Source: a virus (Duplodnaviria; Caudoviricetes). From it: a DNA stretch of 64,000 nucleotides. A program made the position numbers and the translations under genes. Positions 6,400 to 50,536 of the stretch are shown here, piece after piece; the stretch's first letter is position 1, and each line of letters starts with the position of its first letter. The stretch is taken from positions 673 to 64,672 of IMG/VR virus record IMGVR_UViG_3300009619_000001; one strand, written 5' to 3'. The notes below the pieces were generated by a model. That model was given only the letters and a program-made list of their open reading frames with translations. It had not been told where the DNA came from and searched no databases.

Positions 6400-6401
6400 A
6401 A

Positions 6402-12081: not shown

Positions 12082-12117
12082 TTTGCAATATTACTAAAAA
12101 TTTGTTACTAAAAAAAA

Positions 12118-14295
12118 TTAATCTTTAATTTGACCTTTTAATTGTCCTTCCATTTGATTTAATGCAGCGTCTGCACGCTTAGTTCCGTAAGCGTCATCAG
12201 ACAGTATTTCTGCAGTTTCTAATTTAGATTGATGCTGTATTTCAGCAACCTTAATCCTAGTTTCGTTATCAAGCTTATTCATTTCAACTTCAATTTCTAA
12301 CTCTTGTTGTTTAGCTTGAGCTTCTGCTTGAGCTTGCTCAGACATAGCTTGTTGTTGCTGTGCTTGCATTTCTTTAGCAGCTTCTAAACCTCTTTCAAGG
12401 ATGTGCTCTGCTTCAGTCATAGTATCAGACTTATATATTCTAATTACGTCTAGCATATCTATTTGACCAGACTGTAAAGCTGATTGAGCTAACTGACTTA
12501 CAGCAGCCTTCATTTGCTCATCTTTACCTCCGTCACCCAAGAATACTCCGTAGTCATTTAATGCTACATCTGGCATTATTGATATAAACTTATAAGTACC
12601 GTCACCAAAAACAGTTGCAGTCTTTTTTCCTTCAGACCAGCAAACCTTCATTAAGTTAGCACAACGCATAAGTACATCTTGCTTTGCCATATCGTGTGAC
12701 CAAAACCAAGATCTTGTAATAGTAGCCGACTGTACTACAGCTCTTTGCTGATTACCTACTTGCTCATACTGTTCAACCTGACCTTCACGCTGCTTAGTTA
12801 CACCTGATACTTGACCAGCCATATCTTCTAGCATTACTTTAAGGTTTATAAGTTGCTGTACAGAATTAGACAATGTAAAGTCTATTTGCTGAAATTGATT
12901 AAATGTTTGCGCTTGCAAACCTTCATCTTTAGAGTTTATAGGTATAATACCATCATTTTTGATATGATACATTACATCTTGCATGTTCATACCTAAATTA
13001 GCTGGCATTTGTGCTACATCATACACAACAGCTTTACCACCAGACCTAGCCATACATAGTTCTATATGATACATAGTTATGTTGTAAAGCATTTGCACGT
13101 TTTTAAGCAAATCTACCATAGATACAGGGTTACCTGTAGTATGATTTCTTACAACACCTATGTAGCTTAGATTAGCTGCACTAGGATCGTCTAAAGATCT
13201 TATTTGATTAGGAACTCTTTGGCAGTTAACCATAATCTTACCACCAATCTTAGTTGCCTGCCAAATATCATCAATAACAACTTTTCTTATCTTTTCACCC
13301 TTACGTTTTTTGTATTTATCAGAAACCATCTTTCTAAATGGTTTATCTTCATCATGTTTGTTAGGGCTTATTTTATATTGCATTTTCTTAAGTGATCTCC
13401 ACTCTGCGTGAACAACTTTAACTCTAAGCTCACCAGACTCACCTTTCATGTACCAGTTTCTGTATTCAGAATAAAGGTCAAGACTGTTTTGGTTAGACAA
13501 AGACTCTATAAGCTCAATATCCTTATCAGAAAGAACTTCACCAAACTCATCTACTATATCACTAGGAGATAGCCACCTTTCTTCTGTAATCCAGTTAGCT
13601 TCTCCAAGATCGTCAGTTTCTGTAGATAAATCGTAAGCTAAAGCTCTAGGGTCTACCCTTCTAACGTGTGGATCACCATCTTTTATTTCTACTCTATAAC
13701 ATTCTTTACCTGTAATAAGTAAATCTCTAAATCCTTCTTTAAATTTGTTTTTAAGCTTGTACTTGTTTACAAGAAACTCAAGACCATCTTGCACAGACTC
13801 TTCTATAGACTCTCTATAGTTGTATCTCATAAAAGTATCTATATCGTCAGGTATAGGTATTTCTTGACCTTCAGTCTTAACGTCTATACCCATTTCACCC
13901 ATCTGCTCTTTAACTTCTTCAAGCAATTTATTCATAACCATAGAAACTTTATGGTCTTCTTTTCTATTAATAGCCTCTTGATTTATCGTAACTACCTTAG
14001 TATCAAGTGGTCTATGAAGATCTTCTCCTAGCAACAGATCTATCTTAGGTTGTACAATAGGGTAGTTTACTAATCTTGCAGGGTAATTGTATCCATACTG
14101 TTCAGTAAGATATTTATAATCATCTCTATTGAAATCACCATTATATATATCGTAGTTTCTAATGTCTTTTAATTTATACCTATTTTCTGGGCTATCTACA
14201 TGATCTGTAGAGTTAACTATAGCGTTAAGCATTTGCTCACACCACTTCTTATCTTTTTTAGAGTCAGGTATTAATTGGCTAGGAAAATTCTTCAT
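12118..14295 (-). CDS. Portal protein
   Basis: 725 aa; NYPIVQPKIDLLLGE, FRDLLITGKE, DIWQATKIG and VSGVTKQREGQV motifs typical of crAss-like portals; follows the terminase. Confidence 0.9.
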   Translation of the reverse strand: MKNFPSQLIPDSKKDKKWCEQMLNAIVNSTDHVDSPENRYKLKDIRNYDIYNGDFNRDDYKYLTEQYGYNYPARLVNYPIVQPKIDLLLGEDLHRPLDTKVVTINQEAINRKEDHKVSMVMNKLLEEVKEQMGEMGIDVKTEGQEIPIPDDIDTFMRYNYRESIEESVQDGLEFLVNKYKLKNKFKEGFRDLLITGKECYRVEIKDGDPHVRRVDPRALAYDLSTETDDLGEANWITEERWLSPSDIVDEFGEVLSDKDIELIESLSNQNSLDLYSEYRNWYMKGESGELRVKVVHAEWRSLKKMQYKISPNKHDEDKPFRKMVSDKYKKRKGEKIRKVVIDDIWQATKIGGKIMVNCQRVPNQIRSLDDPSAANLSYIGVVRNHTTGNPVSMVDLLKNVQMLYNITMYHIELCMARSGGKAVVYDVAQMPANLGMNMQDVMYHIKNDGIIPINSKDEGLQAQTFNQFQQIDFTLSNSVQQLINLKVMLEDMAGQVSGVTKQREGQVEQYEQVGNQQRAVVQSATITRSWFWSHDMAKQDVLMRCANLMKVCWSEGKKTATVFGDGTYKFISIMPDVALNDYGVFLGDGGKDEQMKAAVSQLAQSALQSGQIDMLDVIRIYKSDTMTEAEHILERGLEAAKEMQAQQQQAMSEQAQAEAQAKQQELEIEVEMNKLDNETRIKVAEIQHQSKLETAEILSDDAYGTKRADAALNQMEGQLKGQIKD

Positions 14296-16124
14296 TATTT
14301 TATATGTTTTATAGGAGTACCGTTACTATTATATTTATAATATATAAAACCACTTTCTTTTATGGCTTCAGTTTCTTTATTTTTTACTTCAATTGCAAAG
14401 TTATCATTTTCGTGGATTAAACACAAACCAAAGGCGATTGCTCTATCCGTATTCCTAGAACCCCAGTCGCAAAGCTCATCTAAAAGGTCTATAAACCAGA
14501 TTTCATCACCCCTTTCTTTTATGTAATCATACATTAGGGACTCCATATACGCCTTAATCTGCTTATTCATGTGGATACCGTAGTTATTTCTAGTCTTAGT
14601 ACCAGGAGAGTGTGCAGATCTAGGTTTAGTCTTTAAATATTTTTGCGCCCTATTTCTGAGGAAATAGTCTAATATACCAATCTTTGTATATTCAATAAGC
14701 ATTTGTGCGTTATAGTAAACAGCTAATTTTAAGCATCCGTCATAAAATTGCTCTGCTGTTTCAGGTCTATCTGTATATTCAGCAATAGGTAGCCTATATG
14801 GTTGATTAGTATCAGCTATCCTTCTAAATATCATAGCAGAACCTAAAGACGGAGCAGCACCAGCTTGATCTTGATCGTAAGAATCAATACCACCAATATC
14901 TAAACCAGCCATGTGCCTTTGTGGTTCGTGCAATATTTTATAAGGGCCGTGAGGGTGTGGCGTAAACACAACTTTATCTGTTAAGCCATTCTCATTTATC
15001 ACCCAATCTAAGTTACCAGTAGTAATATGTTGCTCTGGGTCTGCAAGTGTCTGAACCCTAGCTCTTTGCTGATTAAGCAATGCTATATCAAACCTAGAGC
15101 CTTTAGTTTTTAAGAACGCTTCTTGTACTGTAAGAGGGTAGTTTTGCAAGTGTAAGTTGTATGCTTTACTATCCCCACCATTGTCAAGTATTTTTTGTCG
15201 CTCATTCTCTATATACTCATGAGCTTTTTTATCATCATCCACTCCAGTCTTAGGACTAAAGAATCCGTGAAGAGCTTTAGATGCAGGTATAAACATAGGG
15301 ATTAGGTTAAACGCCTCTGCATTATAGTACATATCCATAAAGTCAGCAGACGCTGCATCAATGTCACCCCCAGTTCCACCAATAACAGGAACGCCATACT
15401 GATAAGCACCATCCATGAAACAAGCCTTAGATGACATATATGCGTTCTTTAACCTTTTAAACTCCCCAGCTTCTTCAAATATCATTATTGACAGACGCTC
15501 ACCTTTGTAAACTTCAGGATCATCCATCGTTCTACAATGTATAACAGATTGATAACCGCCTATCTCCCACCTACCTTCATTGTTCTTTTGCTTGTACCCA
15601 GCCCTAAGAACATCTTTAGTATCCTTAAGCCAACCATGCCGAAAATTAGGGTGTTGGTTTTGCAACCCTTTTTTGACTTTGTCAAAGAAAGAATTTGCTG
15701 TCACACCAAGTCCAGCCGCAATTCCTACCTCGGAATGCGGAAAGAAAGTAAATTCGTGACCGACTAGCCCTGAGTTCATATAGGAAAACCCTTTATCCCT
15801 AGCTTTAATCACAATCATCCCTTTACCTTCCTCCCTGCAAGTATGGAAGAGGTTAAAATACTCTCTATCCATATCCCTATACCAGGGGTATATTAAGCTT
15901 TTACGATTTCCATCACTACCATCATTACCAAGAATCATGTAGTAGTTTAGATACCAATAGTAGTTACCAGGTATCCACTCCCCACCAGGGGGTTTATAGC
16001 CATTAATACACCTGTGCATCTCTTCCTCCCAATAATCTTGATACGCAAGACTATCTGCATCTAGTTTAGGGTGTCCGTTGTTAGGTATTGGCCTGTAAGC
16101 CTGTACGTCAAATTTCTTAGCCAT
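14295..16124 (-). CDS. terL: Terminase large subunit
   Basis: Walker A-like IKARDKGFS, Walker B IFEEAG, GGTGG coupling motif, RNase H-like nuclease GGIDSYD; no intein seen. Confidence 0.93.
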   Translation of the reverse strand: MAKKFDVQAYRPIPNNGHPKLDADSLAYQDYWEEEMHRCINGYKPPGGEWIPGNYYWYLNYYMILGNDGSDGNRKSLIYPWYRDMDREYFNLFHTCREEGKGMIVIKARDKGFSYMNSGLVGHEFTFFPHSEVGIAAGLGVTANSFFDKVKKGLQNQHPNFRHGWLKDTKDVLRAGYKQKNNEGRWEIGGYQSVIHCRTMDDPEVYKGERLSIMIFEEAGEFKRLKNAYMSSKACFMDGAYQYGVPVIGGTGGDIDAASADFMDMYYNAEAFNLIPMFIPASKALHGFFSPKTGVDDDKKAHEYIENERQKILDNGGDSKAYNLHLQNYPLTVQEAFLKTKGSRFDIALLNQQRARVQTLADPEQHITTGNLDWVINENGLTDKVVFTPHPHGPYKILHEPQRHMAGLDIGGIDSYDQDQAGAAPSLGSAMIFRRIADTNQPYRLPIAEYTDRPETAEQFYDGCLKLAVYYNAQMLIEYTKIGILDYFLRNRAQKYLKTKPRSAHSPGTKTRNNYGIHMNKQIKAYMESLMYDYIKERGDEIWFIDLLDELCDWGSRNTDRAIAFGLCLIHENDNFAIEVKNKETEAIKESGFIYYKYNSNGTPIKHIK

Positions 16125-20449: not shown

Positions 20450-21376
20450 ATGAAAAATTCTAAATTAGTAGAAATCGGATTAGATTTCACAGTATCAAAA
20501 AGACCTTTAGTTAGAATAGACAAAGAAGTTTCTGTTAACGAACAAGGTCAATTAGCAACTAACGACAAGATAGTAGAGACAGACTGGTTTGCAACTACTA
20601 ATGACTCTACAGATGAATCTCTCGGTGTTGTAGGTAAGAGCTATACTCTTACGCAGAACGAAGAAATCATTAGAGTCTTGGAAAAAGTAGCCCAAGACAA
20701 TGACTACACCATAAGCCACTCAGGGCCTATTAACGGTGGTCGTCAATGCTTTGTGCAATTTCGTCTTAACGAAGAAGTAGAAGTAGCAGAAGACACCTTA
20801 GTTAAATATGTTGTCGCAACATGGGGACATGATGGTAAGCATGGTGTTAGAATAGGATATGGTAATCAGGTGGTTAGTTGTGCTAATCAATTTTACCAGT
20901 TCCACAATAACGCACAGCACAAGCTTAGACATAGTGCATCTATTACTGAACAACTTGCTGCTATTCCTCAAATACTTAATCAGTATAAAGAAGAGGAGAA
21001 TCTTATGTATCAGAAGTTCCAAGAATGGTCTAAAGTTGAAATCTGGACTGAAAGACATCTTATGGATTTTAGAAATAACTTATGGAAAGATCTTATGAGT
21101 ATAGACAGATCATTGTCTCACGATGAGTATGTTAAACAATACTCTACTCGTAAAATTAATTCTGCAATGCAATTACAGCAGTCTATTAACACCGAAATGC
21201 AACTGCATGGTCAAACCCTTTGGGGATTGTTTAACGGTGTTACACACTATGTAAACCATAAAAAATCTGTTCCTAACAGACCATTTGGTAGAGACGAGTC
21301 TTTAATTGTAGGTGGTGGCGCTAAAATGGCCAACAAAGCCTTCAAAATGATAGACAATTTCGCAGCTACATTGTAA
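20450..21376 (+). CDS. DUF932/DUF945-family (TIGR03299-like) phage/plasmid protein
   Basis: LGVVGKSYTLTQNEE, VVSCANQ, KLRHSAS and GQTLWGLFNGVTHY motifs are characteristic of this family. Confidence 0.8.
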   Translation: MKNSKLVEIGLDFTVSKRPLVRIDKEVSVNEQGQLATNDKIVETDWFATTNDSTDESLGVVGKSYTLTQNEEIIRVLEKVAQDNDYTISHSGPINGGRQCFVQFRLNEEVEVAEDTLVKYVVATWGHDGKHGVRIGYGNQVVSCANQFYQFHNNAQHKLRHSASITEQLAAIPQILNQYKEEENLMYQKFQEWSKVEIWTERHLMDFRNNLWKDLMSIDRSLSHDEYVKQYSTRKINSAMQLQQSINTEMQLHGQTLWGLFNGVTHYVNHKKSVPNRPFGRDESLIVGGGAKMANKAFKMIDNFAATL

Positions 21377-23026: not shown

Positions 23027-23473
23027 ATGAACTATTTTAAAACAGAAACTAAATTCTTGTCAGAAAATGACGAAGCTCAGTTTCATCAAGCTGTAGACTT
23101 TATTTCTGATCTTTTACAAATTAAACCAGAAATGCTTGCTAAGAAAAGTAGGAATAAAGCTAGCGTTATGGCTAGACATTCTTTGGCTTACTACCTTAGA
23201 AAGCATACAGAGTTTCCTCTTGAGTATATAGGGGCTATGATGAACAAGCATCATGCAACTATTATTCACAGCATAAAGTTTATAACTGATTATTCTTCTT
23301 ACGATCCTTACATAAGGATGCTGAAAGAAAGTATAGATAATAAATTTAAACCAGATCATTTTTCTTTTAGAAAAGAAATTATGAAATGTATAAAGTCTCA
23401 GACTACGGACTCAAGTAAGGCAGAAAATATATTAACTTTATTTCACCAATACGCAAAAAAATCATTAACCTAA
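23027..23473 (+). CDS. Stand-alone DnaA C-terminal (domain IV) HTH protein
   Basis: KSRNKASVMARHSLAYYLRKHTEFPLEYIGAMMNKHHATIIHSIK follows the DnaA domain IV pattern (ARQIAMYL...SLPEIG...RDHTTVLHA); no AAA+ domain. Confidence 0.8.
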   Translation: MNYFKTETKFLSENDEAQFHQAVDFISDLLQIKPEMLAKKSRNKASVMARHSLAYYLRKHTEFPLEYIGAMMNKHHATIIHSIKFITDYSSYDPYIRMLKESIDNKFKPDHFSFRKEIMKCIKSQTTDSSKAENILTLFHQYAKKSLT

Positions 23474-27088: not shown

Positions 27089-27625
27089 ATGGGAAAAACT
27101 AAATCAGAAGTTCTAAACGAGCTATTTAAAAAGTGCAACCTTACTAACGAGGATGTACACAAACACAAATTCTATACTATCATCACAAGATCAGGTATAG
27201 AAAAAGTTCAGGCAGCATTTGGTATTGACGTTGAGTACAGCGTTGAAAACCTATCTGCAGACCATAAATACTGCCTAATTAAGGCTAAAGGTATTATGGG
27301 TGACTCATGGACTGAGACTTATGGCGAATCATCTCCGTCAAACAATAGCAATGCCTATCCTGTTGCTATGGCCGAGAAGCGTGCTTTATCTCGTATTGTC
27401 CTTAAGTTAGCTGGACTATATTCTCAAGGAGTATTTGGTGAAGATGAATCAGTAGATTTTGCTGCGTCTAACAACCCTAAAAAGACTCTTGACGACAAAA
27501 CCTTTCAGGCTATGCTAAAAGCTACTAAAACAGATCCTCAGAGAGTTTTAGATGCTATGTGCAAGTATACGCTAACTCCTTCTCAAGAAGAAGAGTTGAC
27601 CTCTGCTGCAAACGCTGAAATTTAA
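27089..27625 (+). CDS. Probable ssDNA annealing recombinase (Rad52/Sak-like)
   Basis: IITRSGIEK, ETYGESS and YPVAMAEKRALSRIVLKLAG motifs; adjacent to the SSB. Confidence 0.55.
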   Translation: MGKTKSEVLNELFKKCNLTNEDVHKHKFYTIITRSGIEKVQAAFGIDVEYSVENLSADHKYCLIKAKGIMGDSWTETYGESSPSNNSNAYPVAMAEKRALSRIVLKLAGLYSQGVFGEDESVDFAASNNPKKTLDDKTFQAMLKATKTDPQRVLDAMCKYTLTPSQEEELTSAANAEI

Positions 27626-27641
27626 TCAATTAGTAACTTAC

Positions 27642-27671
27642 GGAGGGGAGAAAATCTCCCTTCCTTTTTTT
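27642..27671 (+). terminator. Intrinsic terminator
   Basis: GGAGGGGAGA-AAA-TCTCCCTTCC followed by a T run. Confidence 0.8.
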
Positions 27672-27711
27672 CACCGAGCCATAAACTTACAAGGCTCACA
27701 AATCATTTATT

Positions 27712-28065
27712 ATGTCAAATTTGCAAATTACAGGAACAATCAAATTAATTAACGAAGTACAATCAGGTATTTCTAAAACAACTAACAAAGAGTGGAAAAA
27801 ACTCAATTTTGTTATTGAAACTAAAAGCGACTACCCTAAGTCTGTTGCATTTACAGTATTCGGAGGAGAAAAGGTAGACAACTTTGTTAAGTACAACAAG
27901 GTTGGTCAAACAGTTGACGTTAGCTTTGATCCAGAATCTCGTGAATACAAAGGGAGATACTACACAGATCTAAACGCTTGGAAAGTTTTCACTAATAAAG
28001 GTGAAGAAACTAGCGCACCAGCAGGAAACAACGCTCCTGTTGACGCTGGCGACATGCCATTCTAG
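27712..28065 (+). CDS. DUF3127 Bacteroidota-type single-stranded DNA-binding protein
   Basis: LQITGTI...WKKLNFVIET...YPKSVAFTVFG...SREYKGRYYTDLNAWKV and an acidic tail ending DMPF. Confidence 0.85.
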   Translation: MSNLQITGTIKLINEVQSGISKTTNKEWKKLNFVIETKSDYPKSVAFTVFGGEKVDNFVKYNKVGQTVDVSFDPESREYKGRYYTDLNAWKVFTNKGEETSAPAGNNAPVDAGDMPF

Positions 28066-28116
28066 TATAAATTTACCCCTGAAAGGTTCGCCAAGTAGGG
28101 GGTAATTTTATTTTCC

Positions 28117-28124
28117 TATATTTG
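28117..28124 (+). promoter_or_regulatory. Bacteroidota -7 promoter element TATATTTG
   Basis: Intergenic, after a hairpin at about 28064-28107, 11 nt before the ATG at 28136. Confidence 0.7.
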
Positions 28125-28135
28125 TACAAACGCAA

Positions 28136-28564
28136 ATGATGGAAAAGAGAACATTTTTTATTCCATTCAGTACGCCATCATCTAAAAATGGTAAACGCTG
28201 GACTGGAAAACACATGATCCACTCCAAAACAGTAATGAACTACATTAAGAATACTAAGCCGTATTGGCAAGAATATTCAGAAGAGTTTAGGGCTATTATG
28301 GATGGGCTACAAAAACCTGTAAAAATATCGTTTAAATTTATTAGAGGAACTAGACATAAGTTTGATTACGTCAACCCCTTACAAACCGTTCAAGACCAAA
28401 TGGTTATACATGGATGGATGGAAGATGACAACTGTGATCAAATTATACCTAGCTTTGAAAAGTATGTTTACGATAAAGAAAAGGCAGGGTGTTATATAAC
28501 CATTAAGAAAACCAATAAACCAATTCAAGATGAATCAGGAACTAGTAATGAAAACTCTGGGTAG
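28136..28564 (+). CDS. RusA-like Holliday junction resolvase
   Basis: PSSKN, FDYVNPLQTVQDQMVIHGWMEDDN acidic catalytic pattern. Confidence 0.7.
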   Translation: MMEKRTFFIPFSTPSSKNGKRWTGKHMIHSKTVMNYIKNTKPYWQEYSEEFRAIMDGLQKPVKISFKFIRGTRHKFDYVNPLQTVQDQMVIHGWMEDDNCDQIIPSFEKYVYDKEKAGCYITIKKTNKPIQDESGTSNENSG

Positions 28565-28934
28565 AATCCTTAGTGATGTTAAGTTTCTTATGGATGCTGT
28601 AGTTAACGACTATCAGCCAAAAGAGAAAGCTCCTAATGAGTATACTAAAGACTTTATGGATTTCTATAAGGCGTATGGTATAAATAAAACTAAGAGCCAA
28701 TCTTTTGCTAAATGGAAAAAGCTAAATAATCAGCAGAAAGCTACGATTATGGAGTTAATACCATTGTACCATAAAGCTTTTGAGCCTAAATTCAGAAAGT
28801 ATCCTAACAACTTTTTATCAAACAATTGTTGGGAGGACTACTTGTATTTGCTTGAAACTAACAAGCAATCAGAAGATAGGGCTAAAAAGATAGCTAAAGC
28901 TCAAGAGGATCGTTTAGACGCTTACAACTTCTAG
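28530..28934 (+). CDS. Replication initiator/helicase-loader-like protein (lambdoid-type C-terminal domain)
   Basis: FMDFYKAYG...KSQSFAKWKKL...RKYPNNFLSNNCWED resembles the F..FW..YP.K..K..A...W.KL...P.TWLN...WED domain; directly precedes the helicase. Confidence 0.65.
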   Translation: MNQELVMKTLGRILSDVKFLMDAVVNDYQPKEKAPNEYTKDFMDFYKAYGINKTKSQSFAKWKKLNNQQKATIMELIPLYHKAFEPKFRKYPNNFLSNNCWEDYLYLLETNKQSEDRAKKIAKAQEDRLDAYNF

Positions 28935-28935
28935 T

Positions 28936-29910
28936 ATGGATTATAAAATTAATTCTAAAGAAGAAATCTCTGAGTATCTGAATCATGTTTACAAGAACGG
29001 ATACAACAAAGGATTATCTACAGGAATACCGTGGCTAGACAAGCACTACACTTACAGGAAAGGTGAATTAGATGTTATTACAGGCTTTGCCAATATTGGT
29101 AAGACCACAGCAATCTTTTACCTTATGATGTTAGCATCAGTTAAGTATAAGTGGAAGTGGCTATGCTATTGTCCAGAAAACGAGCCAGTAGGTGAGATGG
29201 TTATTGATCTTGCAGAAATGTTTATAGGAATGACTGCCGACAAAACAAAGTCAGAGCGCATGGATAGATCAGTATTTGATGCTGCCTGCGCTTGGGTAAT
29301 GGAACACTTTAAAGTAGTTTCGTTCCCTACAACGCCAACAATCTATGATGTTCTTGAGGTTTTTCAAGACGAAATAGATAATGGCAACTTTGACGGTTGT
29401 TATGTTGATCCTATGAATGACTTAGCTATTAACAGATCAATGAGTAAGTACGACTACTACTATCAGGTATTGTCTGACATACGTAGATTTAAACAGAAAA
29501 ACTTTGTAAAGTTTATACTGGTAACTCACGCTGTTACTAAAGCAGCTAGAGAACGAGGAGATGACGGTAATATACCTGCACCATCACACTACGATGTAGA
29601 GATGGGTGGTATGTTTGCCAATAGAACGGACAACTTTATAGTTGTACACAGGAATCCTAATTCTGACGATTGGAGTGATACACAGATTCATGTAAGGAAG
29701 ATTAAATTCCAGAAGCTTGTAGGTATTCCAACGCAGGATAACGAGCCTGTAATACTCAGATTCGAGCCTAGACTATGTAGGTTTAGATCTTTAAACAAAA
29801 AGAAAATGGTGTGGGAAGATGTTCTAGAGCAGAATACCATGGATTTTATGAGTAGCCATAAGGTTAAAATAGAGCCAGAAATCTTCGATAATAATAACTT
29901 ACCCTTTTAA
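28936..29910 (+). CDS. SF4 (DnaB/twinkle-like) replicative helicase without primase domain
   Basis: Walker A TGFANIGKT, Walker B YVDPMN, LVTHAVTK and DNFIVVHR motifs. Confidence 0.85.
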   Translation: MDYKINSKEEISEYLNHVYKNGYNKGLSTGIPWLDKHYTYRKGELDVITGFANIGKTTAIFYLMMLASVKYKWKWLCYCPENEPVGEMVIDLAEMFIGMTADKTKSERMDRSVFDAACAWVMEHFKVVSFPTTPTIYDVLEVFQDEIDNGNFDGCYVDPMNDLAINRSMSKYDYYYQVLSDIRRFKQKNFVKFILVTHAVTKAARERGDDGNIPAPSHYDVEMGGMFANRTDNFIVVHRNPNSDDWSDTQIHVRKIKFQKLVGIPTQDNEPVILRFEPRLCRFRSLNKKKMVWEDVLEQNTMDFMSSHKVKIEPEIFDNNNLPF

Positions 29911-29921
29911 AAACAAAAATC

Positions 29922-30305
29922 ATGGGAAAAACAAAAGAGATCACAGAAGATCAACAAAAAGCTTTAGACGCTGAAAAAGCATTTAGAGAGTCGCCATTAG
30001 GGCAAAACATTACTCAGTTAGAAGATCATGTTGCTAATCATTTAGTTGACATGCTTGACGCTGTTGGTGTTGGAGTAACAGACGACAATAGAGATGTTGT
30101 AATGTCTAACTTTATTGCTGCAGCTCACGCTGCTGGAACAATTCAGAAATTAGTTTGGGAGCAATTAGACTTCGAAGCTAAACAAAGAAATCTTCAGCAA
30201 GCCGCTCCTTCAGCTCAAACTGAAAAGCAAGCTAGAAAAGCTGAAAAAAAAGAAGCAGTTAAAAAAAACAGGCCTAGAGGTAAAACTTCTATGAAAAAGG
30301 CTTAA
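29922..30305 (+). CDS. Hypothetical protein
   Basis: 127 aa, basic C-terminus. Confidence 0.6.
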   Translation: MGKTKEITEDQQKALDAEKAFRESPLGQNITQLEDHVANHLVDMLDAVGVGVTDDNRDVVMSNFIAAAHAAGTIQKLVWEQLDFEAKQRNLQQAAPSAQTEKQARKAEKKEAVKKNRPRGKTSMKKA

Positions 30306-30343
30306 GTTTTATTAACAAAACTTTTTTATTACAGAAAAACTAC

Positions 30344-30351
30344 TATATTTG
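30344..30351 (+). promoter_or_regulatory. Bacteroidota -7 promoter element TATATTTG
   Basis: Intergenic; followed by an approximately 80-nt leader ending in a terminator-like hairpin. Confidence 0.6.
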
Positions 30352-30403
30352 TTATGTGATTTGGTTATTACATAATGTAATTGGTTTTAATGGTTAATTA
30401 GTG

Positions 30404-30435
30404 AGAAGGGGGCTTTATGCTCCCTTTCTTATTTT
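30404..30435 (+). terminator. Terminator-like hairpin in the leader of the exonuclease gene
   Basis: AGAAGGGGGC-TTTAT-GCTCCCTTTCT followed by TATTTT. Confidence 0.6.
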
Positions 30436-30447
30436 AAAACAATTATT

Positions 30448-31257
30448 ATGCAAGAAACAAAAGATCAATTCATTGAAAAGCTAAAAGACGATAGCTTTTA
30501 CTATTCAGACAAGTCGCATGTAAGCTGCTCTATGCTAAAGCACTTGCTTAAATCTCCTATACACTTACAGATGTACTTAGACAATCCTCCACCATCAACG
30601 CCTGCTATGGCTTTTGGTAGCGCATTGCATTGTCTGTTGTTAGAGCCAGAAAAGTTTAATGATGGCTTTTACATATACGACACTAAGCATAGACCTGAAA
30701 AGGATAAGACTATGGCCTCTAAGGCAAACAAAGAGTGGAAAGCAAAACAGATCAGAACATCTTACGCTAAAAATCAGATATTAATAACGTCTGAAGACTT
30801 AGATAAGATAGATGATATGATTAGCTCTATGACTAAACACGAAGATGTTAACAAGATACTAAGCACTTGCGAAAAAGAAAAAGCAATTGCATGGTCTAAT
30901 ATTGTTAATGACTCTACAATAGACTGCAAAGGTAAAATAGACTTAGCTACCTTTGATTACATAGCTGACGTTAAAACTACGGCTGAATTTGGAGGTATTG
31001 ACAAGTTTAGGTACGATTGCAAAAAGTACCATTACGACATGCAGGCTGCGTTTTATTGCGATGCACTAGGCTTAGATCAGTTTAAGTTTATTGTAGTTGG
31101 CAAGAACGATCCTTATGACGTTGGTATATTTGACGTATCACCAGAGTTCTTAGAGTCTGGAAGACAGAAGTATAAGTATGCGCTATCACAATATGAGAAA
31201 TATTTCATATCTTGCGCCAAGAATATAGATAACTATATAGAGAAAGGAACATTGTGA
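30448..31257 (+). CDS. PD-(D/E)XK exonuclease, RecE/ExoVIII-like (DUF3799)
   Basis: SCSMLK, AMAFGSALHCLLLEP, CKGKID, IADVKTT and YHYDMQAAFY motifs. Confidence 0.85.
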   Translation: MQETKDQFIEKLKDDSFYYSDKSHVSCSMLKHLLKSPIHLQMYLDNPPPSTPAMAFGSALHCLLLEPEKFNDGFYIYDTKHRPEKDKTMASKANKEWKAKQIRTSYAKNQILITSEDLDKIDDMISSMTKHEDVNKILSTCEKEKAIAWSNIVNDSTIDCKGKIDLATFDYIADVKTTAEFGGIDKFRYDCKKYHYDMQAAFYCDALGLDQFKFIVVGKNDPYDVGIFDVSPEFLESGRQKYKYALSQYEKYFISCAKNIDNYIEKGTL

Positions 31258-41058: not shown

Positions 41059-44000
41059 TTAAGATATTATAAGCTCATAAGTGCTATGAGTGTTTTTCAT
41101 TTTTACTTGATAACTCTGTCCTGGTTCTAAATCTCCAACACCATTAAAACCCCATTCAGGTAAGTAAGCTTGACCATGGTAGTCTTTAAGAATTATAAGG
41201 TCAGAAACTAAGTCCTCAAATACTAAAACCGCATCTCTAGACGACTCTATTGGCCAATTAATCAGATTCCATCCACTAGTTAATTTTAAAACAAAACGCT
41301 CACTAAAAATATCTCCTTTTCCTGTTTCTACTACATCTCCGTGAGGCTTGCTTACAAAAACTATTTCACTACCTCCAGATCTCCAATTTGGATCAGGTAA
41401 ATATATTGGAAAATTTGCAACTGCTTGACTATCATATTTATAAGGAAAATAATTACTACTCCAACTAAATTCTCCTCCTTCTAAAAATTCATCTATTCTA
41501 TAATTAGAAATTTGATGCTCGTTATTTATATTATATTCCCTCCATGAGTAAGGATGTCCTACAAGTTTATAAACAAATCTACCATTAACATATTGATAAC
41601 GTTCATGCGGTCTGCTAAATAAATACTCTCTAGTACTTAAAGGATAATAATGCCCTGATTTTCCTTCAATAAATTCACGAGTTTCACTATATTGACTCAT
41701 TTGTAATGAATCATCCGAAACAATAACCCTACCATCGCTGTTTACTGATATATTACCTTCACCATGTAATAATTCCAGCTCTTTAATTTTTTTCTCGTCT
41801 GGACTCCAGTTGTATGTATAAATAAGGCCTTCAACCTCAACTTGAAGCTCGCTAGCTGTAGAATTAGTACCATTATGACTTATAAGGTTTATAGATGGTT
41901 GACCAATAGGTTCTACATTTTGCATTTTAACATGAAGCCCTTCGTGAGGACTAATAGGCCCTATACCATCAAAATCCCATTCTGGAAGATATGCCTCACC
42001 TTGATTATTTTTAACTATTATTAATTGATCGTTATCAAATAATTTTTCAAGTAAATATCTAGTATTAAAAGTAGTGTATGTTTCTCCAAAATCAGTTACT
42101 GTAACCTTGTTTTCTTCAACATCTTCTAAATAATGCCATCCCCCACTTGTATCAGTAATTTTTATAGATAACACCTCTGAAAAATCCAAAGGAAAACCTT
42201 TCATATTCCACCCATTTCGGAATCTAACAAATCTTTCAACTACGGGAATTACATCTCCAGTACCGCTAGGAACTTCATCTATAAGGCTTGGAATAGTTAC
42301 GGTGTACTCTCTGTAAGGATCAAGACCTTCTACTGTTGGTATAATATAAGTCCAAGGAACTTCATCTCCCTCAACATCTGCTATTGCAACTTCACTATCT
42401 AAACTAAAAGCCTTAATTAAAAATGGCTTTCTATCTTCATTTAAACTTTCATAAACGTCATTCCATACAACCTCTTCGTTTCCGCTAGAGTTTTCTCGTT
42501 TATATGATTTAAAAAGTATTTTATCATAATTTACAAATTTTTTATCAACTCTTCTTCTTAAGGCTACATCATAAATTTTATTTGGATTAGTACTTAAAGT
42601 CCCTATTGCACTTCCTTGTCCGTCATAAAGTTTACATCCGTAATAGTTTGTAAAATTTCTAAGATCATATTCTGTAGGGTATCTAACTGGTCTAACATAA
42701 GCTTTTGTGTTGTTTTCTGCTACAGGAACCGAATAAGGCCAAAAACTACCAGAACCAAATGTCTCACTTAAATAATCATAATCTCTTTCCATGTGAAAAA
42801 GTAAAGGCTGCCTTTTTCCGCTAGGATTAGTAATCGGGTGATAAGTATCGTAAAAAGTTGAAGTGTAATAGTTAGATCTTTGGAAATTTCCTGGATTGTA
42901 ATATCTATCAATAGCTTGAATTGTAATTCTACACTCAAGTATTGCATCTCCACCACCCATAAGACCTGTTCCGCCACAGCTATTTGTTGAGGTTATAATA
43001 AATCTAATTTCATTTGTATCCTCATCTTTGTACCAAGCGTATCTATTTGTTGCGTGTTGAGCACCATTTTTAAAATGATTTACGTCACTTCTATTGTTTA
43101 ATAATGTACTTGAGTATGAGTTACCAATTGGGTTAGGACTATCTGGGTGCGTTCCTGTATTTATTGTATTGCCTAGCCCATCTCCATTCCAAAAATCAAT
43201 AATGTCATCATAGTCTTGAGTAGCAGTATATGTTCTATCTAAATAATAAAATCTATTTTCACACTCTCTTTGCTCGCTACCTGTCGCTCCGCTACTAAGC
43301 CATCCCCAAAATTGAGTAAAAACATTAGTATATTCAGCTCTTTCGTGCCACAACTCAAGCCTCATTGTGTACCCTTCTTTAATAGGTATAGATCTGTAGT
43401 AGTTTTGATCTTGATATTTCTCACTAAGACCTTCATACTCCATTGTTACAAATGCGTATGAATTATCTTTTTTACTTTCTTTTTTTTTGCCAGGATTTAT
43501 TATTGTATAATATTCATTTAGTTCGCCTTCATTATTTTCATATTCTTGAATACCAACAGCTTTCTTTACCGCAACCATTTCATTCCAACTAGGAATAAAC
43601 CAATCATCTTTACCATCGGAAGAATAATTTAAAGCTGCTTGAGCAGCGTAATGAGGATTATTATATACTTCAGCTAAACCTAAAGTGTTATCGTATCCAC
43701 TAAAAATTAAAGAAGAATTTGATCCTTCGTATTTACTTAAAAAATCTAAATCTTTATTTCTTTTAATTTCATCTGTTTCATCCCAAATTAAATTGTAACT
43801 ATTAACTGCTTCATCTAAACCGCCATCAACTTTACTAATTCTATAGATTACATAATCTACATCCCATTGCGTCTCTATACCACTTACGTTAGATATAGTG
43901 CCTTGAGCATTACTTATCCTATCACCAGCTTTAAGCCAGACAGGATCTAAATCGTTTTCAAGTTCAACAGTAAATGAATAAGCATTGCGATCAAACCCAT

Positions 44001-46467
44001 CTGTTTCAAGTAAATCAAAGAGGCTTGCAGTATCAGTACTACTATAACTGTAGTGACCATGTATACTATACAAGTCTCCTCCAGTATCTCCCCAATAATC
44101 CTCTTCTTTTACTTTAAATGTATGTTCAAAAAAAGTTTTTTTGTAACCACCGTTTCCATCACTTTTTTTGTAGTCAATTACAACCATGTAAAGTTTAAGT
44201 CGGCTACTAGGCTCAATACTATTAATATCAAAAGAGTTTCTTGTTTCTGGAGTCCATATACTAAGGCCTTCTTTGCAGTTGTATGGATGAGCCTCTTTAT
44301 TTGGATTAAGCTCCCAAGAATTATAATCGCTTATATAATTCCCATTATTGTCATAAACTTTATATGGATAAATTGCGAGATATGGAGTTAATTCAGGTGT
44401 AGTATTTTGAGTAAGAGAATTAAAATTACTTTCAGTTATAAAAGTAGGAGGAGTAAAATCAAGCGAAAAAGAAATACTAAGACGCTTTATCTCTGAAACT
44501 ACATCTCCATCATCATTATAATCATAAACAGATCTAGAGCCCATACTAGCCCAAAAAGTGTGATAATAACCTGGATCAACATCTCCATAAGGAGTTTCAA
44601 CAATGTAATTTTCTACATTATTAAAATAAAAATAACCGTCTCTATGTTCGTCTATATCTTGTTTTAAATTTTCAATATAATCTTCACCTGCTTCTCTAAA
44701 TGTATCTAACTCTAATAAAATTGTTTCTACTCCAGAACCTCCTGAAATTATTTGTTCTCCACTTACTCTACTACTCAATCTATAAGCGTCATACTGAGGA
44801 ACTACATTAAACTTAACTCTATGTATTGAATGGTCATAGTCATACTCTGGCTCAATAGGCTCTAGGCCTGCATAAAAAGATTCATAATCTCTATTTAAAT
44901 TACCAGCAGTATAACCCCCTGTAGGAATATTTTGAATGCCACTTGTATAAAGACCATATTCATTACCATAAAGCATAGCTACGTCAAAACTAAAATAGGA
45001 GTAGTTATATTGAATATAATTATTATAATACCATTGACTTGTAGCTGATACTGTTCCGTCAGATTGGTGAGGTAATCTATTTATTATAAAAAATCCATTA
45101 TTATTAAAATACTCAAAATCACCTGAAGCTATACTTCTATATGGAAATGTGTTTGTATAGTAATTAGCAGGTATTGAAACATGCAGGTCATAATGAGAAC
45201 ACACTAAAGCTTTTTGCTTGTCTTCTGTATTTCTTGGGGCATCATCCAAGTAAGCAATAAATCCGCCTAAATCATCACTAAATCCCCCAATTTCTGCGTT
45301 ACTTTCCGAATAATCTAACCAATATGGCCCTCTATAGTATCCAGTATTTACTTCATAATTACTATCAGGCTCATTTTGAGAAATTCTAATATTTTGATTT
45401 TTCAATTTATTAAAACCATCCCACCCTAAAGGGTACCAACCAATAGTAAATTTAGCCTCTGCAAGACCAAATCTTTGAGTTTTTTCGTTGTGATAATAAT
45501 AAACAGATCCTCTACCCTTATAAACTACATCGTCTTCATTATTAAACTTTTCAGCTCTTTGAATAGAATGATACCAACTCCCCCAGAAAAGAGCTACACC
45601 ATAAACAGTCCTTATATAATCATTTAAGTTTCCTCCTGACCTTCTTTCTGTACTAAACATTTTAAAGTTATTTAATACAATTGGATCTGTAATTTTTAAG
45701 TAAGAATCTAAATCTTCTCCAGTTAAGTTTTCGCTTTCCCAAGTTTTATCATTATCATCAGGATGAACATGAAAAACCCCATTTTCATAATCATACTCGT
45801 TTCCACTATCTCTTATAGCAGAACTAAAAGATGAATAAGGATGTTGACTTAAAAATCCTAAAGTACCATTTTTGTTGTAGTTTTTAGAAAAATAATGTTC
45901 TTCTCTTTTGTGATATATTGAATCCCAATCTCTAGCTACTTCAGCCCAGCCTGCCTGGTCATTTACTTCGTAAACTACACCACCAAGCAATGGGCTTCTA
46001 TATCCTACATATAAATCTAATTCTTCGTAAGAATAATCATTACACCTTAAATATTGAGAGGAAAGAGTGTCGTATAGATCAAGAGCTTCTTGATTGTTGT
46101 AAAAACTTAATTCGTGAAAAACTTCCTCCCACTCTTCTTGAGTTGGTATAAACCAATTATCCGCACCATCACAAGAAACATTTTCTAAGTTGTAATAGCT
46201 AGTAGTACGAGGGTGATTGCTTGATTCAAAATCCCAATCTATATTCTTGTATACAGTACCATAAAAATCTGCTTGACTTCTTCTTGGAGGCCTAACTGTT
46301 TGCCATTCAACACCGTTAGGGTCAAAGTCAACATTAACTATTGATGTTGGGGAAACATCCCATTCAGGGTGTCTATCTGCGTAACCTATATCTACAACAT
46401 AAACAAGCTTTCTAACAGCGTCAATGTGGTATATGTATCCACCATTAAATATTTCTCCTACTTTCAT
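41059..46467 (-). CDS. Large mosaic receptor-binding/fibre protein with DUF1566/C-type-lectin-like repeats
   Basis: 1802 aa; repeated GG.iy...D starts, WFIPTQEEW and WFIPSWNEM, YVRPVR; two copies of the AYLPEW.F.G.G domain. Confidence 0.65.
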   Translation of the reverse strand: MKVGEIFNGGYIYHIDAVRKLVYVVDIGYADRHPEWDVSPTSIVNVDFDPNGVEWQTVRPPRRSQADFYGTVYKNIDWDFESSNHPRTTSYYNLENVSCDGADNWFIPTQEEWEEVFHELSFYNNQEALDLYDTLSSQYLRCNDYSYEELDLYVGYRSPLLGGVVYEVNDQAGWAEVARDWDSIYHKREEHYFSKNYNKNGTLGFLSQHPYSSFSSAIRDSGNEYDYENGVFHVHPDDNDKTWESENLTGEDLDSYLKITDPIVLNNFKMFSTERRSGGNLNDYIRTVYGVALFWGSWYHSIQRAEKFNNEDDVVYKGRGSVYYYHNEKTQRFGLAEAKFTIGWYPLGWDGFNKLKNQNIRISQNEPDSNYEVNTGYYRGPYWLDYSESNAEIGGFSDDLGGFIAYLDDAPRNTEDKQKALVCSHYDLHVSIPANYYTNTFPYRSIASGDFEYFNNNGFFIINRLPHQSDGTVSATSQWYYNNYIQYNYSYFSFDVAMLYGNEYGLYTSGIQNIPTGGYTAGNLNRDYESFYAGLEPIEPEYDYDHSIHRVKFNVVPQYDAYRLSSRVSGEQIISGGSGVETILLELDTFREAGEDYIENLKQDIDEHRDGYFYFNNVENYIVETPYGDVDPGYYHTFWASMGSRSVYDYNDDGDVVSEIKRLSISFSLDFTPPTFITESNFNSLTQNTTPELTPYLAIYPYKVYDNNGNYISDYNSWELNPNKEAHPYNCKEGLSIWTPETRNSFDINSIEPSSRLKLYMVVIDYKKSDGNGGYKKTFFEHTFKVKEEDYWGDTGGDLYSIHGHYSYSSTDTASLFDLLETDGFDRNAYSFTVELENDLDPVWLKAGDRISNAQGTISNVSGIETQWDVDYVIYRISKVDGGLDEAVNSYNLIWDETDEIKRNKDLDFLSKYEGSNSSLIFSGYDNTLGLAEVYNNPHYAAQAALNYSSDGKDDWFIPSWNEMVAVKKAVGIQEYENNEGELNEYYTIINPGKKKESKKDNSYAFVTMEYEGLSEKYQDQNYYRSIPIKEGYTMRLELWHERAEYTNVFTQFWGWLSSGATGSEQRECENRFYYLDRTYTATQDYDDIIDFWNGDGLGNTINTGTHPDSPNPIGNSYSSTLLNNRSDVNHFKNGAQHATNRYAWYKDEDTNEIRFIITSTNSCGGTGLMGGGDAILECRITIQAIDRYYNPGNFQRSNYYTSTFYDTYHPITNPSGKRQPLLFHMERDYDYLSETFGSGSFWPYSVPVAENNTKAYVRPVRYPTEYDLRNFTNYYGCKLYDGQGSAIGTLSTNPNKIYDVALRRRVDKKFVNYDKILFKSYKRENSSGNEEVVWNDVYESLNEDRKPFLIKAFSLDSEVAIADVEGDEVPWTYIIPTVEGLDPYREYTVTIPSLIDEVPSGTGDVIPVVERFVRFRNGWNMKGFPLDFSEVLSIKITDTSGGWHYLEDVEENKVTVTDFGETYTTFNTRYLLEKLFDNDQLIIVKNNQGEAYLPEWDFDGIGPISPHEGLHVKMQNVEPIGQPSINLISHNGTNSTASELQVEVEGLIYTYNWSPDEKKIKELELLHGEGNISVNSDGRVIVSDDSLQMSQYSETREFIEGKSGHYYPLSTREYLFSRPHERYQYVNGRFVYKLVGHPYSWREYNINNEHQISNYRIDEFLEGGEFSWSSNYFPYKYDSQAVANFPIYLPDPNWRSGGSEIVFVSKPHGDVVETGKGDIFSERFVLKLTSGWNLINWPIESSRDAVLVFEDLVSDLIILKDYHGQAYLPEWGFNGVGDLEPGQSYQVKMKNTHSTYELIIS

Positions 46468-46475: not shown

Positions 46476-47090
46476 TTATTGTATAGCAATTAAACTTCCA
46501 AATGGAATACCGCTAACAGTCATTATTTCAGAAGGAAATTCTTTACTATCAATTTCTTTTGTTTTATATAAAAGATTTCCTTTTAATGAAAAGCTTATTC
46601 TGTAAATTTTATCATCACCCAATTCTTTCCATAAAACTACTAATTCAGCCCTATAAAACTCTACTTTTCTTTCATAGGGTGTAAATTGTATTTTAAAATC
46701 TACAGTTGCATTTGGGTACAAAGTAAAAGATTGGTGAATTCTAAAATTGTATTTATTTTTAGCTAAACCAAAATTTTCATAAGTTTCATTGCCTGGCTTA
46801 TATTTGTAATAAGGAGGGTAAGGAATATTAAATTCATCAGAAGCATTTGGCGTTTCGTCTTTTATTTCATTATTTGGATAAACAAATTGTGAAGTAGGTA
46901 TTGTAAATGCAAAGTTAGTTATATTACTATGCTCTTGATAGTTGCTAATAATATTTCTAACATATACATTTACAATTCTTACATTAGTAGTTCCAATATT
47001 TTTTATCCCAGCTAAATAGGAGTTTCCAAAATTAGAATATCCAGCTGCTCCCCAAAAATTACCATATATAATTTCAGGTAAAAAAGACAT
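46476..47090 (-). CDS. Ig-like (ASH/choice-of-anchor D-like) fibre-module protein
   Basis: IKNIGTTNVRIVNV...TLYPNATVDFKIQFTP...YRAELVV pattern. Confidence 0.5.
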   Translation of the reverse strand: MSFLPEIIYGNFWGAAGYSNFGNSYLAGIKNIGTTNVRIVNVYVRNIISNYQEHSNITNFAFTIPTSQFVYPNNEIKDETPNASDEFNIPYPPYYKYKPGNETYENFGLAKNKYNFRIHQSFTLYPNATVDFKIQFTPYERKVEFYRAELVVLWKELGDDKIYRISFSLKGNLLYKTKEIDSKEFPSEIMTVSGIPFGSLIAIQ

Positions 47091-50000: not shown

Positions 50001-50536
50001 CCTCCAGGTATAGCGTTATTTTTTATAAAATCTGTTGTGTAAACTGGCATTAAGTGATCGCATCCTGATTGATTAAATTCTCCACCATCATCATTATCAT
50101 CTGGATCTATATTACTACTATCCTCAATTGAACTTCCGTAACCTACAAAAGCTTCAGCTCCTGTACAAGAACCAGTTGTTGCGTGCGTAGTATTAGCAAT
50201 GCCATACCCTGTATTAGTGGCATCAGAAGCAAGATCAGCTTCTGTTTTTAATTTATTATCACTAATAAGGCCTAACAAAAGATTTCCAGAATTATCCATA
50301 GGATCTATACTAAATCCTTCACTTGTAAATTTATCATTACCAATAATATCTTCTATAATAAGGTTTGAATTATTTTCTATACTTTTGTTTTTAACAACAA
50401 AAAGAAAAAAAGCAACTTGCTTAAAATTAGGTTTTGTAAACCTATAAACATCAAATAGCGTGTCTTTAAAGTCTCCTAGATTTAACTTCTCATTAGCAGA
50501 TGGATTATCGCTTATTTTAGGGTAAATTGTAGCCAT
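47090..50536 (-). CDS. Large fibre/spike protein with Ig-like domains
   Basis: 1148 aa, S/N/G/Y-rich; FIVRCEP...LTIKNND and FHNTGDYPIYIQSV Ig-like segments. Confidence 0.6.
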   Translation of the reverse strand: MATIYPKISDNPSANEKLNLGDFKDTLFDVYRFTKPNFKQVAFFLFVVKNKSIENNSNLIIEDIIGNDKFTSEGFSIDPMDNSGNLLLGLISDNKLKTEADLASDATNTGYGIANTTHATTGSCTGAEAFVGYGSSIEDSSNIDPDDNDDGGEFNQSGCDHLMPVYTTDFIKNNAIPGGSYASFIVRCEPESASTFDDETEGEVPTLTIKNNDDLVKIKFLGKAVNNIRFYGDPGTLQTINTGDNFQGEDVTASFISSSNSANSNLSNNIADETGEGQEILDDGYLLNLGLYPVGYLPTNRNLVFKFGDHSSVNGLCQYIPLDGFEIVEYARVFSGDTNENAGVNSENYLESFPNSFVSPGNSYYINETDLSNDANRNPVLEDNAFFFKSFEYQTGSTFTQNATPALKYPNDKFYNKTYPKNEHTVGVIYKIAHVINGHNTEQTEDDKNFIFSAFGGFYDILTYNEQPFGDYFYSKHLSGDEDSYSNYLAGYNSTYYKYYGTALRGYDNGATSFALRSSAGIPIGFSLQFNQYASQYLFDRTDSSGQITGRDGASIQLEIPEFNIQNSFQIASDDGATHLPKFSTEDNISSVRLDGSGFSSTDAIDSTTTSSRFNGYAIGSGQEVIRDLGLKWLVSPSNSLSTMYSSGDLTKVNNWGGDFGIYSSTYHAVISDTSVWQHLKYTSQTYAPKFKIGYQAKPSVLNIVTGQDLKNSNGVSQDYKSHFFADGTTDQITKGYSMQCSEIVVSDWYHYNSTTPLSSTNQQDLSSNTRPFSTEGSWYGAGLTEILKPKCWNYDTSRWDPTNGDFSVGATGSIPATKSGYYSNYPKNNFVRYNNGSDVIYNQYYLNTDKTVKGIDARYFSLPSASYNPNTGKWRSVGRLYFHNTGDYPIYIQSVNLLEKEFKLEGVASQNSPDSYQGTLDALMPDTNKTYKPTSNSATPSWGFNKGYKNGGTKWVEDNNMGGYGSSVPVGHIPDDVSTTKQLQQHYQDQDKVDVYNYNRANGLDVNKKWVVETLNNGDNFSSTNDTAADEKLVITGIDDNYIDITFDLTPTNVAADDEGTYYVQLAVSYWVADYYNTFYFTDNTGLVNTAVSSTNVHHHSRLQVSKFLIAVNVEAVAEIAITDTEGDVLYPDLNDKVIEMPNLSID

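Follow-up and report, generated by a model that had tools for sequence, protein, structure and literature searches.

A marine crAss-related phage lineage with a putative virion RNA polymerase and no detectable DNA polymerase or primase

Introduction

Phages that inject an RNA polymerase, such as the N4-like and crAss-like phages, are usually regarded as largely self-sufficient, and among the Crassvirales the type of DNA polymerase is a much-discussed marker because of the swapping between PolA and PolB. The initiator-helicase modules of P22 (gp18/gp12) and SPP1 (G38P/G39P/G40P) leave polymerase and primase to the host, and the recombination modules of lambdoid/Rac type are known for RecE/RecT and RusA. 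The subject of this report is a replication and recombination module (positions 27,089 to 31,257) in a stretch of 64,000 nucleotides, hereafter the window, that comprises bases 673-64672 of one 64,672-bp IMG/VR virus record (IMGVR_UViG_3300009619_000001; genome G000). The module lies between genes for a crAss-type virion and a gene for a putative virion RNA polymerase (vRNAP), neither a DNA polymerase nor a primase was detected by profile searches of the nearly complete genome, and replication is probably carried out by the host replisome.

An initial annotation of this DNA took described Crassvirales all to encode PolA or PolB. That premise was overstated, as exceptions, crAss-like phages without a DNA polymerase, had already been noted by Yutin et al. 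2021 (PMC7886860). The epsilon crAss-like phages of the same paper are ~150 kb in size, with no transcription gene block and a minimal replication set; the present lineage, at 66 kb and with the vRNAP block kept, is set apart from them by published description only. New marine Crassvirales clades with 'typical gene content' have since been reported by Piedade et al. 2024. Two further systems serve for comparison: the Steigviridae phage phi14:2 (NC_021806), and Elemovirus (Flavobacterium phage vB_FspP_elemoA, MT497118), a group of cultured Baltic podoviruses of ~60 kb for which no paper describing the genomes was found in the literature searched.

Comparison with described phages

The structural block of the Crassvirales (major capsid protein (MCP), portal, large terminase (TerL), muzzle and ring proteins) was found in the window, as was the transcription block with its DxDxD RNA polymerase motif; of the replication block (DnaG-family primase, DnaB, SNF2, AAA+ ATPase, PolA/PolB), a superfamily 4 (SF4) helicase was the only element present. 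The likeness to phi14:2 covers the crAss-type MCP, muzzle and rings, portal and TerL at ~25-30% identity, a transcription block homologous to gp67, gp66 and gp65, a RusA-like protein 44% identical to g044, and a marine Flavobacteriia setting; the phage is marine, and its host is probably among the Flavobacteriia. In relatives, counterparts of phi14:2 g034 and g037-g041 were seen in the Sak4 gene and the GGACT-glutamine amidotransferase-amidoligase set. Unlike phi14:2, with ~100 kb, the lineage has a 66-kb genome, lacks PolB/PolA, DnaG-type primase, SNF2 helicase, ribonucleotide reductase (RNR), ThyX, uracil-DNA glycosylase and dUTPase, and appears to have three transcription-block proteins fused into one open reading frame (ORF) of 3916 amino acids (aa). 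As a side observation, the GGACT, amidoligase and glutamine amidotransferase genes homologous to g037-g041 were located in relative G001 (locus L094, 1295-1654, 8269-9759 and 9896-10924, minus strand); they are absent from G000 and form a non-structural link of the lineage to marine Steigviridae.

Elemovirus shares the overall design. A crAss muzzle homolog (3e-13) and a giant structural protein of 3667 aa occur in elemoA, and the replication module of the group contains, besides an annealing protein and an exonuclease, a replication protein and a helicase that belongs to the family of the present one (24% identity). A DNA polymerase was neither annotated in elemoA nor detected there by six-frame profiles or the custom hidden Markov model (HMM) described below. 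In contrast to the present lineage, the helicase of Elemovirus still carries a Toprim primase domain (Toprim 7e-16 in elemoA), its annealing protein is of the ERF type and its exonuclease acts 5'-3'; the proteins shared by the two are only 19-24% identical, and the Elemovirus MCP falls short of the Crass_capsid model. The lineage thus appears to be the sister of Elemovirus and not a member of it, and the suggestion in the initial annotation of an undescribed lineage does not wholly hold, as a cultured relative of the same design is in GenBank.

A TerL tree of 19 rows, rooted on one cyanophage and carrying long-branch warnings, placed the lineage (96/98) as sister to Elemovirus (100/97), with both falling outside a grouping of Suoliviridae, Steigviridae and FpV4 (87/95). 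The tree was made without Intestiviridae, Crevaviridae, the epsilon and zeta groups and Antarctic clades C1-C4. Because of its position outside Suoliviridae, Steigviridae and FpV4, and with this limited sampling, the lineage is best called crAss-related rather than a demonstrated member of the Crassvirales.

The replication module had also been likened to that of lambdoid phages, and this comparison stood in part. It is apt for the recombination genes, where a RecE-like exonuclease, an annealing-protein candidate and RusA were all found, the annealing protein being recognized by fold only and double-stranded RNA-binding domains scoring equally. It does not extend to initiation: an O-like initiator, iterons and a P-like loader of host DnaB were not found (no iteron family in 16.9-34 kb), and since the phage encodes its own replicative helicase, the module appears closer to P22 or SPP1 than to lambda O/P. 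The phage shares with P22 and SPP1 the pairing of a hexameric SF4 helicase with a small initiator-like protein, but by sequence its proteins belong to none of the O/P, gp18 and G38P families. Also unlike the lambdoid phages, the module here resides in a virulent-looking phage predicted to inject a vRNAP. Integrase and repressor had been noted as missing, and the Pfam scan agreed: no Phage_integrase or recombinase family was matched in any ORF, no CI-type repressor was found, and the only regulator-type match was a weak TrmB-type winged helix-turn-helix (9e-5). A hidden prophage or temperate reading was rejected because no integrase family was found.

Search for polymerase and primase

All ORFs of the window of at least 60 aa, minus short frames inside or overlapping longer scanned ORFs, were scanned with Pfam, and every ORF of at least 300 aa with PHROGs. 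In accord with the initial annotation, no polymerase, primase, ligase, RNR or thymidylate synthase family was matched in these scans, nor any integrase family. Profiles for PolA, PolB, PolC and primases, a check which that annotation had itself proposed, were then run in six frames: PF00476 (PolA), PF00136 (PolB), PF03175 (protein-primed PolB), PF09250 (Prim-Pol), PF13155 (Toprim_2) and PF07733 (Pol III alpha) all gave zero matches in G000 and in three or four near-complete relatives (87-100% complete). PolA and PolB (PF00136) were also at zero in 37 related contigs, the phi14:2 primase protein as query gave no match, and no Toprim domain was seen in G000-G004.

The value of these negatives differs among the profiles, as positive controls on eight records revealed. 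With PF00476, PolA was recovered from three crAss phages, and with Toprim_2 the primase from seven of the eight crAss or Elemovirus genomes. PF00136, however, gave no match in any of the eight records and missed the annotated PolB of phi14:2 (L111 9636-12081); three of the other records carry PolA, and cr273_1, cr124_1 and FpV4 gave neither a PolA nor a PolB match. Pfam hmmscan was likewise blank on the polymerase-domain exon of phi14:2 and barely saw its primase. PF00136 was accordingly dropped as a test for PolB, and because it misses known crAss PolBs a dedicated HMM of the crAss-type polymerase domain was built from six phages (phi14:2, FPSV-D12, cr109_1, Barba18A, Vibrio 1.032.O and RHph_Y60). 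Leaving phi14:2 out, its polymerase was recovered at 1.6e-78. Run with filters off against six-frame pieces of G000, G001-G003, elemoA and the IMG/VR loci L001-L110 (1.39 Mb), the model gave a best E of 1.5.

Completeness of the genome

The initial annotation had itself named a polymerase or primase gene beyond the sequenced stretch as a finding that would speak against it. CheckV gave a completeness of 96%; the record is labelled 'linear' and has no exact terminal repeats, direct or inverted, at its ends, and a minus-strand ORF crosses the end-to-start junction in frame. Comparison of the junction pieces with relatives having TerL ~60% identical (G001-G003) was uninformative, and closer relatives (G005 and G007, TerL 86-91% identical) were required. 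In these, the giant gene and the homolog of a 623-aa protein of the present record flank a single gene of 631-646 aa. Residues 1-91 of that gene correspond to a 91-aa piece found at the left end of the present record (63-71% identity), and its residues from ~500 to the end to a piece of 141 aa at the right end. The gap at the junction would thus amount to ~405 codons (~1.2 kb) of one ~640-aa gene, and with both record ends inside one gene, too little is absent for a polymerase. The relatives with TerL ~60% identical are 65,964-67,766 bp in length and 97-100% complete (CheckV), which fits a genome of ~66 kb, circular or circularly permuted, of which the window would hold ~98%.

Loss of a replication segment from a chimeric or collapsed contig is, with these data, a very remote explanation. 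The linear record without terminal repeats would agree with it, as would one related contig that is ~5.5 kb longer between TerL and helicase. However, TerL and helicase occur on one molecule in at least five independent contigs, the junction gene could be rebuilt from both ends, and PolA and PolB are missing also from three relatives of 66-68 kb (97-100% complete) and from the 37 related contigs. The longer contig (IMGVR_UViG_3300025085_000073, L036/L068, TerL 91%) is noted in its own right: by coordinates, its extra ~5.5 kb show that the early region varies in length, and no PolA or PolB match was obtained in it.

Virion and transcription genes

The crAss-type virion of the initial annotation was confirmed by Pfam crassvirus families for muzzle, capsid and both ring proteins. 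In addition to the matches listed in Table 1, CrAss_Ring_1 (PF24228) matched at 6e-33 and CrAss_Ring_2 (PF25702) at 1.5e-23, and the PF23898 match to the MCP (5e-34 when located) lies at contig 10118-11215, that is, window 9446-10543. Portal and TerL have their best matches among the Crassvirales at 25-31% identity; the portal is ~27% identical to those of crAss001, IAS virus and others, and TerL is at most 31% identical to that of any deposited phage. Bac_DNA_binding (5.7e-4), the match bearing on the IHF-like protein of the crAss block, was obtained at genome level only, tied neither to an ORF nor to the structural block. A 623-aa cargo-like protein follows the muzzle gene (window 1-1485, minus strand, continuing to contig 286) and has a weak N-terminal Pesticin/lysozyme-like match (PF16754, E 0.0016, below the cut-off).

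The 3916-aa giant protein has no PHROG, Pfam or PDB sequence match, even with a profile of 12 sequences, and residues 1500-3200 gave nothing against deposited phages in tblastn. Two motifs were nonetheless found to be invariant across 12 homologs, HEYxH (1014-1018) and GSDxDGD (2392-2398; D2394-x-D-G-D, here GSDHDGD). With hhalign, residues 178-297 matched phi14:2 gp67 (E 8e-4), residues 1870-2027 the gp66 vRNAP (E 1.7e-4), residues 2345-2412 the DxDxD region of gp66, GSDFDID included (E 0.02), and residues 3679-3846 the zincin-bearing gp65 (E 2.4e-5). The gp67, gp66 and gp65 matches keep the phi14:2 gene order along the protein. The ESM-Atlas lead was to the QDE-1-type RNA-dependent RNA polymerase family, and homologs of the giant protein also occur on contigs of 63.7 and 64.3 kb. 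Each match is weak, and it is their collinearity, together with the invariant GSDxDGD, that supports the proposed virion RNA polymerase and suggests that in the giant protein the crAss transcription/cargo block, vRNAP included, is fused into a single ORF.

Two large orphan proteins of 1148 and 1802 aa lie between the giant gene and the tail-fibre gene. Among 5.8 billion protein clusters they matched only themselves; the 1802-aa protein has no Pfam or PDB match, and the 1148-aa protein gave weak Ig/Fn3-like ESM leads. Their genes probably form a hypervariable host-recognition cassette.

If the phage did encode a DNA polymerase or primase so novel or so diverged that the profiles missed it, the enzyme could be a domain of one of these two proteins or of the giant protein, with a small ORF resembling an archaeo-eukaryotic primase as a further option. 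Such an enzyme is considered quite unlikely. The failure of Pfam on the phi14:2 PolB domain and its near failure on the primase speak for the idea, as does the lack of any Pfam, PDB or function-bearing PHROG match in the three proteins. Against this, PHROGs, which are made from phage proteins, found no polymerase family in the ORFs of at least 300 aa, and the validated custom HMM was negative. The self-matching 1148- and 1802-aa proteins lie in a virion operon beside the tail fibre, which fits host recognition and not replication, and the giant protein is collinear with the phi14:2 transcription block.

The replication and recombination module

Every gene that the initial annotation had named in the module (annealing protein, single-stranded DNA-binding protein (SSB), RusA, initiator-like protein, helicase and ExoVIII-like nuclease) was found in place. 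The central one is the helicase, which had been read as a stand-alone SF4 enzyme. It aligned to positions 352-605 of the 644 of phrog_18375, the C-terminal half of primase/helicase PHROGs, and has the Walker A motif GFANIGKTT and no primase domain. Pfam DnaB_C was not reached and no significant PDB sequence match was obtained, so that a fold search was used. The AlphaFold2 (AF2) model had a mean predicted local distance difference test (pLDDT) score of 62, with 70-90 in the core, and its top Foldseek matches were the T7 gp4 helicase (4e-11), DnaBs and SPP1 G40P (~1e-10), at probability 1.00 and TM ~0.55. Motif, alignment and fold agree with the helicase-only reading.

The 134-aa initiator-like gene overlaps the end of the RusA gene, lies immediately upstream of the helicase gene and is kept together with it in ~20 contigs; its product has no similarity to Rep_Org of phi14:2. 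The RusA-like protein is ~50% identical to homologs in G001-G003. The 178-aa annealing candidate had no Pfam, PHROG or PDB sequence match, although its family is large (914 representatives): 50 members had no Pfam match and the family profile had no PDB match. Its AF2 model (pLDDT 93.5) had as top fold matches the Sak protein of 80alpha, RAD52, Mgm101 and Red-beta, beside the equally scoring RNA-binding domains, so that a role as annealing protein is plausible. The ExoVIII/RecE-like product also matched the NCBIfam exodeoxyribonuclease VIII model (1.1e-24, C-terminal domain), and the second exonuclease, of 371 aa, had 29-32% identical homologs in G001-G003 and no Pfam or PDB match.

The module is not confined to this record. 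It was found to be syntenic, at 50-95% identity, in ~20 independent IMG/VR contigs, the kind of conservation among related contigs that the initial annotation had suggested looking for. In G001, a true DnaB (PF03796 2e-83) is accompanied by a Sak4-like AAA_24 protein, which takes the place of the 178-aa candidate, and by RusA, an ExoVIII-like nuclease and a DnaA domain IV protein, again with no polymerase. The presence of a true DnaB indicates that the replicative helicase has been exchanged within the clade, and the absence of a polymerase appears to be a clade trait, not peculiar to one contig. A side observation concerns an otherwise unrelated phage, G010 (L087; complete, 37,727 bp, with direct terminal repeats), which has no crAss capsid and shares with the window the helicase (59%), the SSB (47%), the DnaA domain IV protein, found also in G001-G003, and two small genes; the helicase, SSB and DnaA domain IV genes thus appear to be exchanged between phage types.

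A different mode of initiation was weighed as well. Transcripts of the injected or the host RNA polymerase, or 3' ends that invade through the work of annealing protein and exonuclease, could prime host Pol III from the start without a phage primase or DnaG, in which case the 134-aa protein would be no initiator. The rich recombination set (exonuclease, annealing candidate, SSB, RusA and second exonuclease), the lack of origin-like repeats, the weak initiator call and the Sak4-like AAA_24 of the G001 sublineage would all suit such a scheme. Conservation of the SF4 helicase, or of DnaB in relatives, argues instead for a conventional fork driven by a helicase, with DnaG as the usual partner, and priming from transcripts or recombination intermediates is held to be unlikely. 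It would alter only the initiation step of the host-replisome explanation.

Other features of the window

The window has a GC content of ~34% and no tRNA (ARAGORN), and its genes fall into three blocks: virion genes on the minus strand (1-16989), early and replication genes on the plus strand (~17.2-33.4 kb) and a second minus-strand block (33.4-64 kb) with the lysis genes, the tail fibre, the two large orphan proteins and the giant protein. Coordinates are collected in Table 1.

Table 1. Features of the window, with positions, strand and the matches or observations on which each assignment is based
Feature	Position	Strand	Basis
crAss muzzle protein	2143..6399	-	PF25731 (crAss_MUZ) 4e-110; 3.9e-112 at contig 3283-7053
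crAss-type major capsid protein	9434..10969	-	phrog_11589 5e-28; PF23898 (Crass_capsid) 4e-35
Portal protein	12118..14295	-	phrog_6547 5e-115; P22_portal 9e-18
Large terminase	14295..16124	-	phrog_6681 3e-95
DUF932 / TIGR03299 phage-plasmid-like protein, early block	20450..21376	+	PF06067 2.4e-25; TIGR03299 2.8e-30
Stand-alone DnaA domain IV (DnaA-box-binding helix-turn-helix) protein	23027..23473	+	PF08299 7.3e-14; TIGR00362 DnaA C-terminus 2.6e-11
Candidate single-strand annealing protein, 178 aa, Rad52/Sak-like fold	27089..27625	+	fold comparison
DUF3127 OB-fold single-stranded DNA-binding protein, 117 aa	27712..28065	+	PF11325 7.8e-24; phrog_4932 6e-23
RusA-like Holliday-junction resolvase, 142 aa	28136..28564	+	phrog_1682 1e-17
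Replication-initiation-like / replisome-organizer candidate, 134 aa	28530..28934	+	phrog_270 'replication initiation protein' 3.9e-8 only
Stand-alone SF4 (gp4/DnaB-type RecA-fold) replicative helicase, 324 aa	28936..29910	+	phrog_18375 3.7e-31
Conserved 127-aa protein	29922..30305	+	no matches in profile scans; syntenic in relatives, 50-67% identity
ExoVIII/RecE-like PD-(D/E)XK exonuclease (DUF3799), 269 aa	30448..31257	+	PF12684 7e-30; phrog_412 1.7e-54
Conserved small protein, 79 aa	31254..31493	+	homologs adjoin exonuclease in G001, G003
DNA repair exonuclease, 371 aa	31498..32613	+	phrog_704 2.7e-65
Strain-specific 1802-aa protein adjoining tail-fibre gene	41059..46467	-	phrog_4245 (unknown function) 1.6e-6 only
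Strain-specific 1148-aa protein, probably fibre or adhesin-like	47090..50536	-	no Pfam, PHROG or PDB match
3916-aa giant protein, putative fused crAss transcription-block equivalent incl. virion RNA polymerase	51810..63560	-	motifs and hhalign
C-terminal piece of the gene interrupted by the record ends, circular junction marker	63574..63999	-	residues ~500-646 of G005/G007 gene

Proposed replication strategy

The explanation that best accounts for these findings, and that is regarded as likely, is a phage whose virion is of crAss type, which injects a vRNAP, has neither DNA polymerase nor primase and is replicated by the host replisome. With no detectable DNA polymerase or primase in a near-complete genome, dependence on the host is the most economical view. 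Of the hybrid lifestyle suggested in the initial annotation, the near-complete genome, the crAss virion, the giant protein collinear with the vRNAP block and the lack of a detectable polymerase or primase stand on observation, and dependence on the host is the part that we infer.

In the proposed scheme, the injected RNA polymerase would transcribe the plus-strand early block, and the 134-aa initiator- or organizer-like protein would load the phage SF4 hexameric helicase at an origin. Helicase and DUF3127 SSB would then recruit the host DnaG primase and Pol III holoenzyme, in a manner comparable to P22 gp18/gp12 or SPP1 G38P-G40P. Initiation by the host may be blocked or diverted by the stand-alone DnaA domain IV protein. 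At a later stage, recombination-dependent concatemer synthesis may be driven by the SSB together with the ExoVIII-like exonuclease and the Rad52-like annealing candidate, with RusA and the second exonuclease debranching the DNA ahead of packaging by TerL.

Several points weigh against this scheme. Use of host Pol III or DnaG is deduced from gene content, the initiator assignment comes from one weak PHROG match, and the helicase model is of moderate confidence. No origin was found: no iteron family was seen in 16.9-34 kb, and DnaA-box-like 9-mers are at chance level (19 observed and 19.9 expected in the window). About 40 small ORFs, as well as the 3916-, 1802- and 1148-aa proteins, have no assigned function and Pfam misses crAss PolBs, so that among them there could, strictly speaking, be a polymerase or primase that is novel or has diverged very far.

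Significance

A polymerase-less crAss-related phage is uncommon, but as a variant it had been foreshadowed, and it does not amount to a system of a new kind. Tentatively, and with somewhat less than even confidence, the lineage and Elemovirus may together form a family-level marine 'mini-crAss' clade of 60-68 kb, in which the vRNAP was kept and the enzymes of DNA synthesis were given up, here even the primase, and in which the helicase was replaced non-orthologously (gp4-like alone, true DnaB, or Toprim-helicase). For crAss-related phages, the known range in size and gene content is extended down to ~65 kb by such a clade. Claims of 'no polymerase' in crAss-like phages call for family-specific profiles and positive controls, because the Pfam DNA_pol_B model misses crAss-type PolBs.

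In summary, if the proposed reading is true, these phages would be autonomous in transcription yet rely on the host replisome, a pairing that is not described for vRNAP-injecting phages, and a widespread marine clade with a vRNAP and no polymerase or primase would mean that the two kinds of autonomy are separable. The cultured Elemovirus isolates would then provide a test system, and could serve as a model of replisome recruitment in Bacteroidota hosts.

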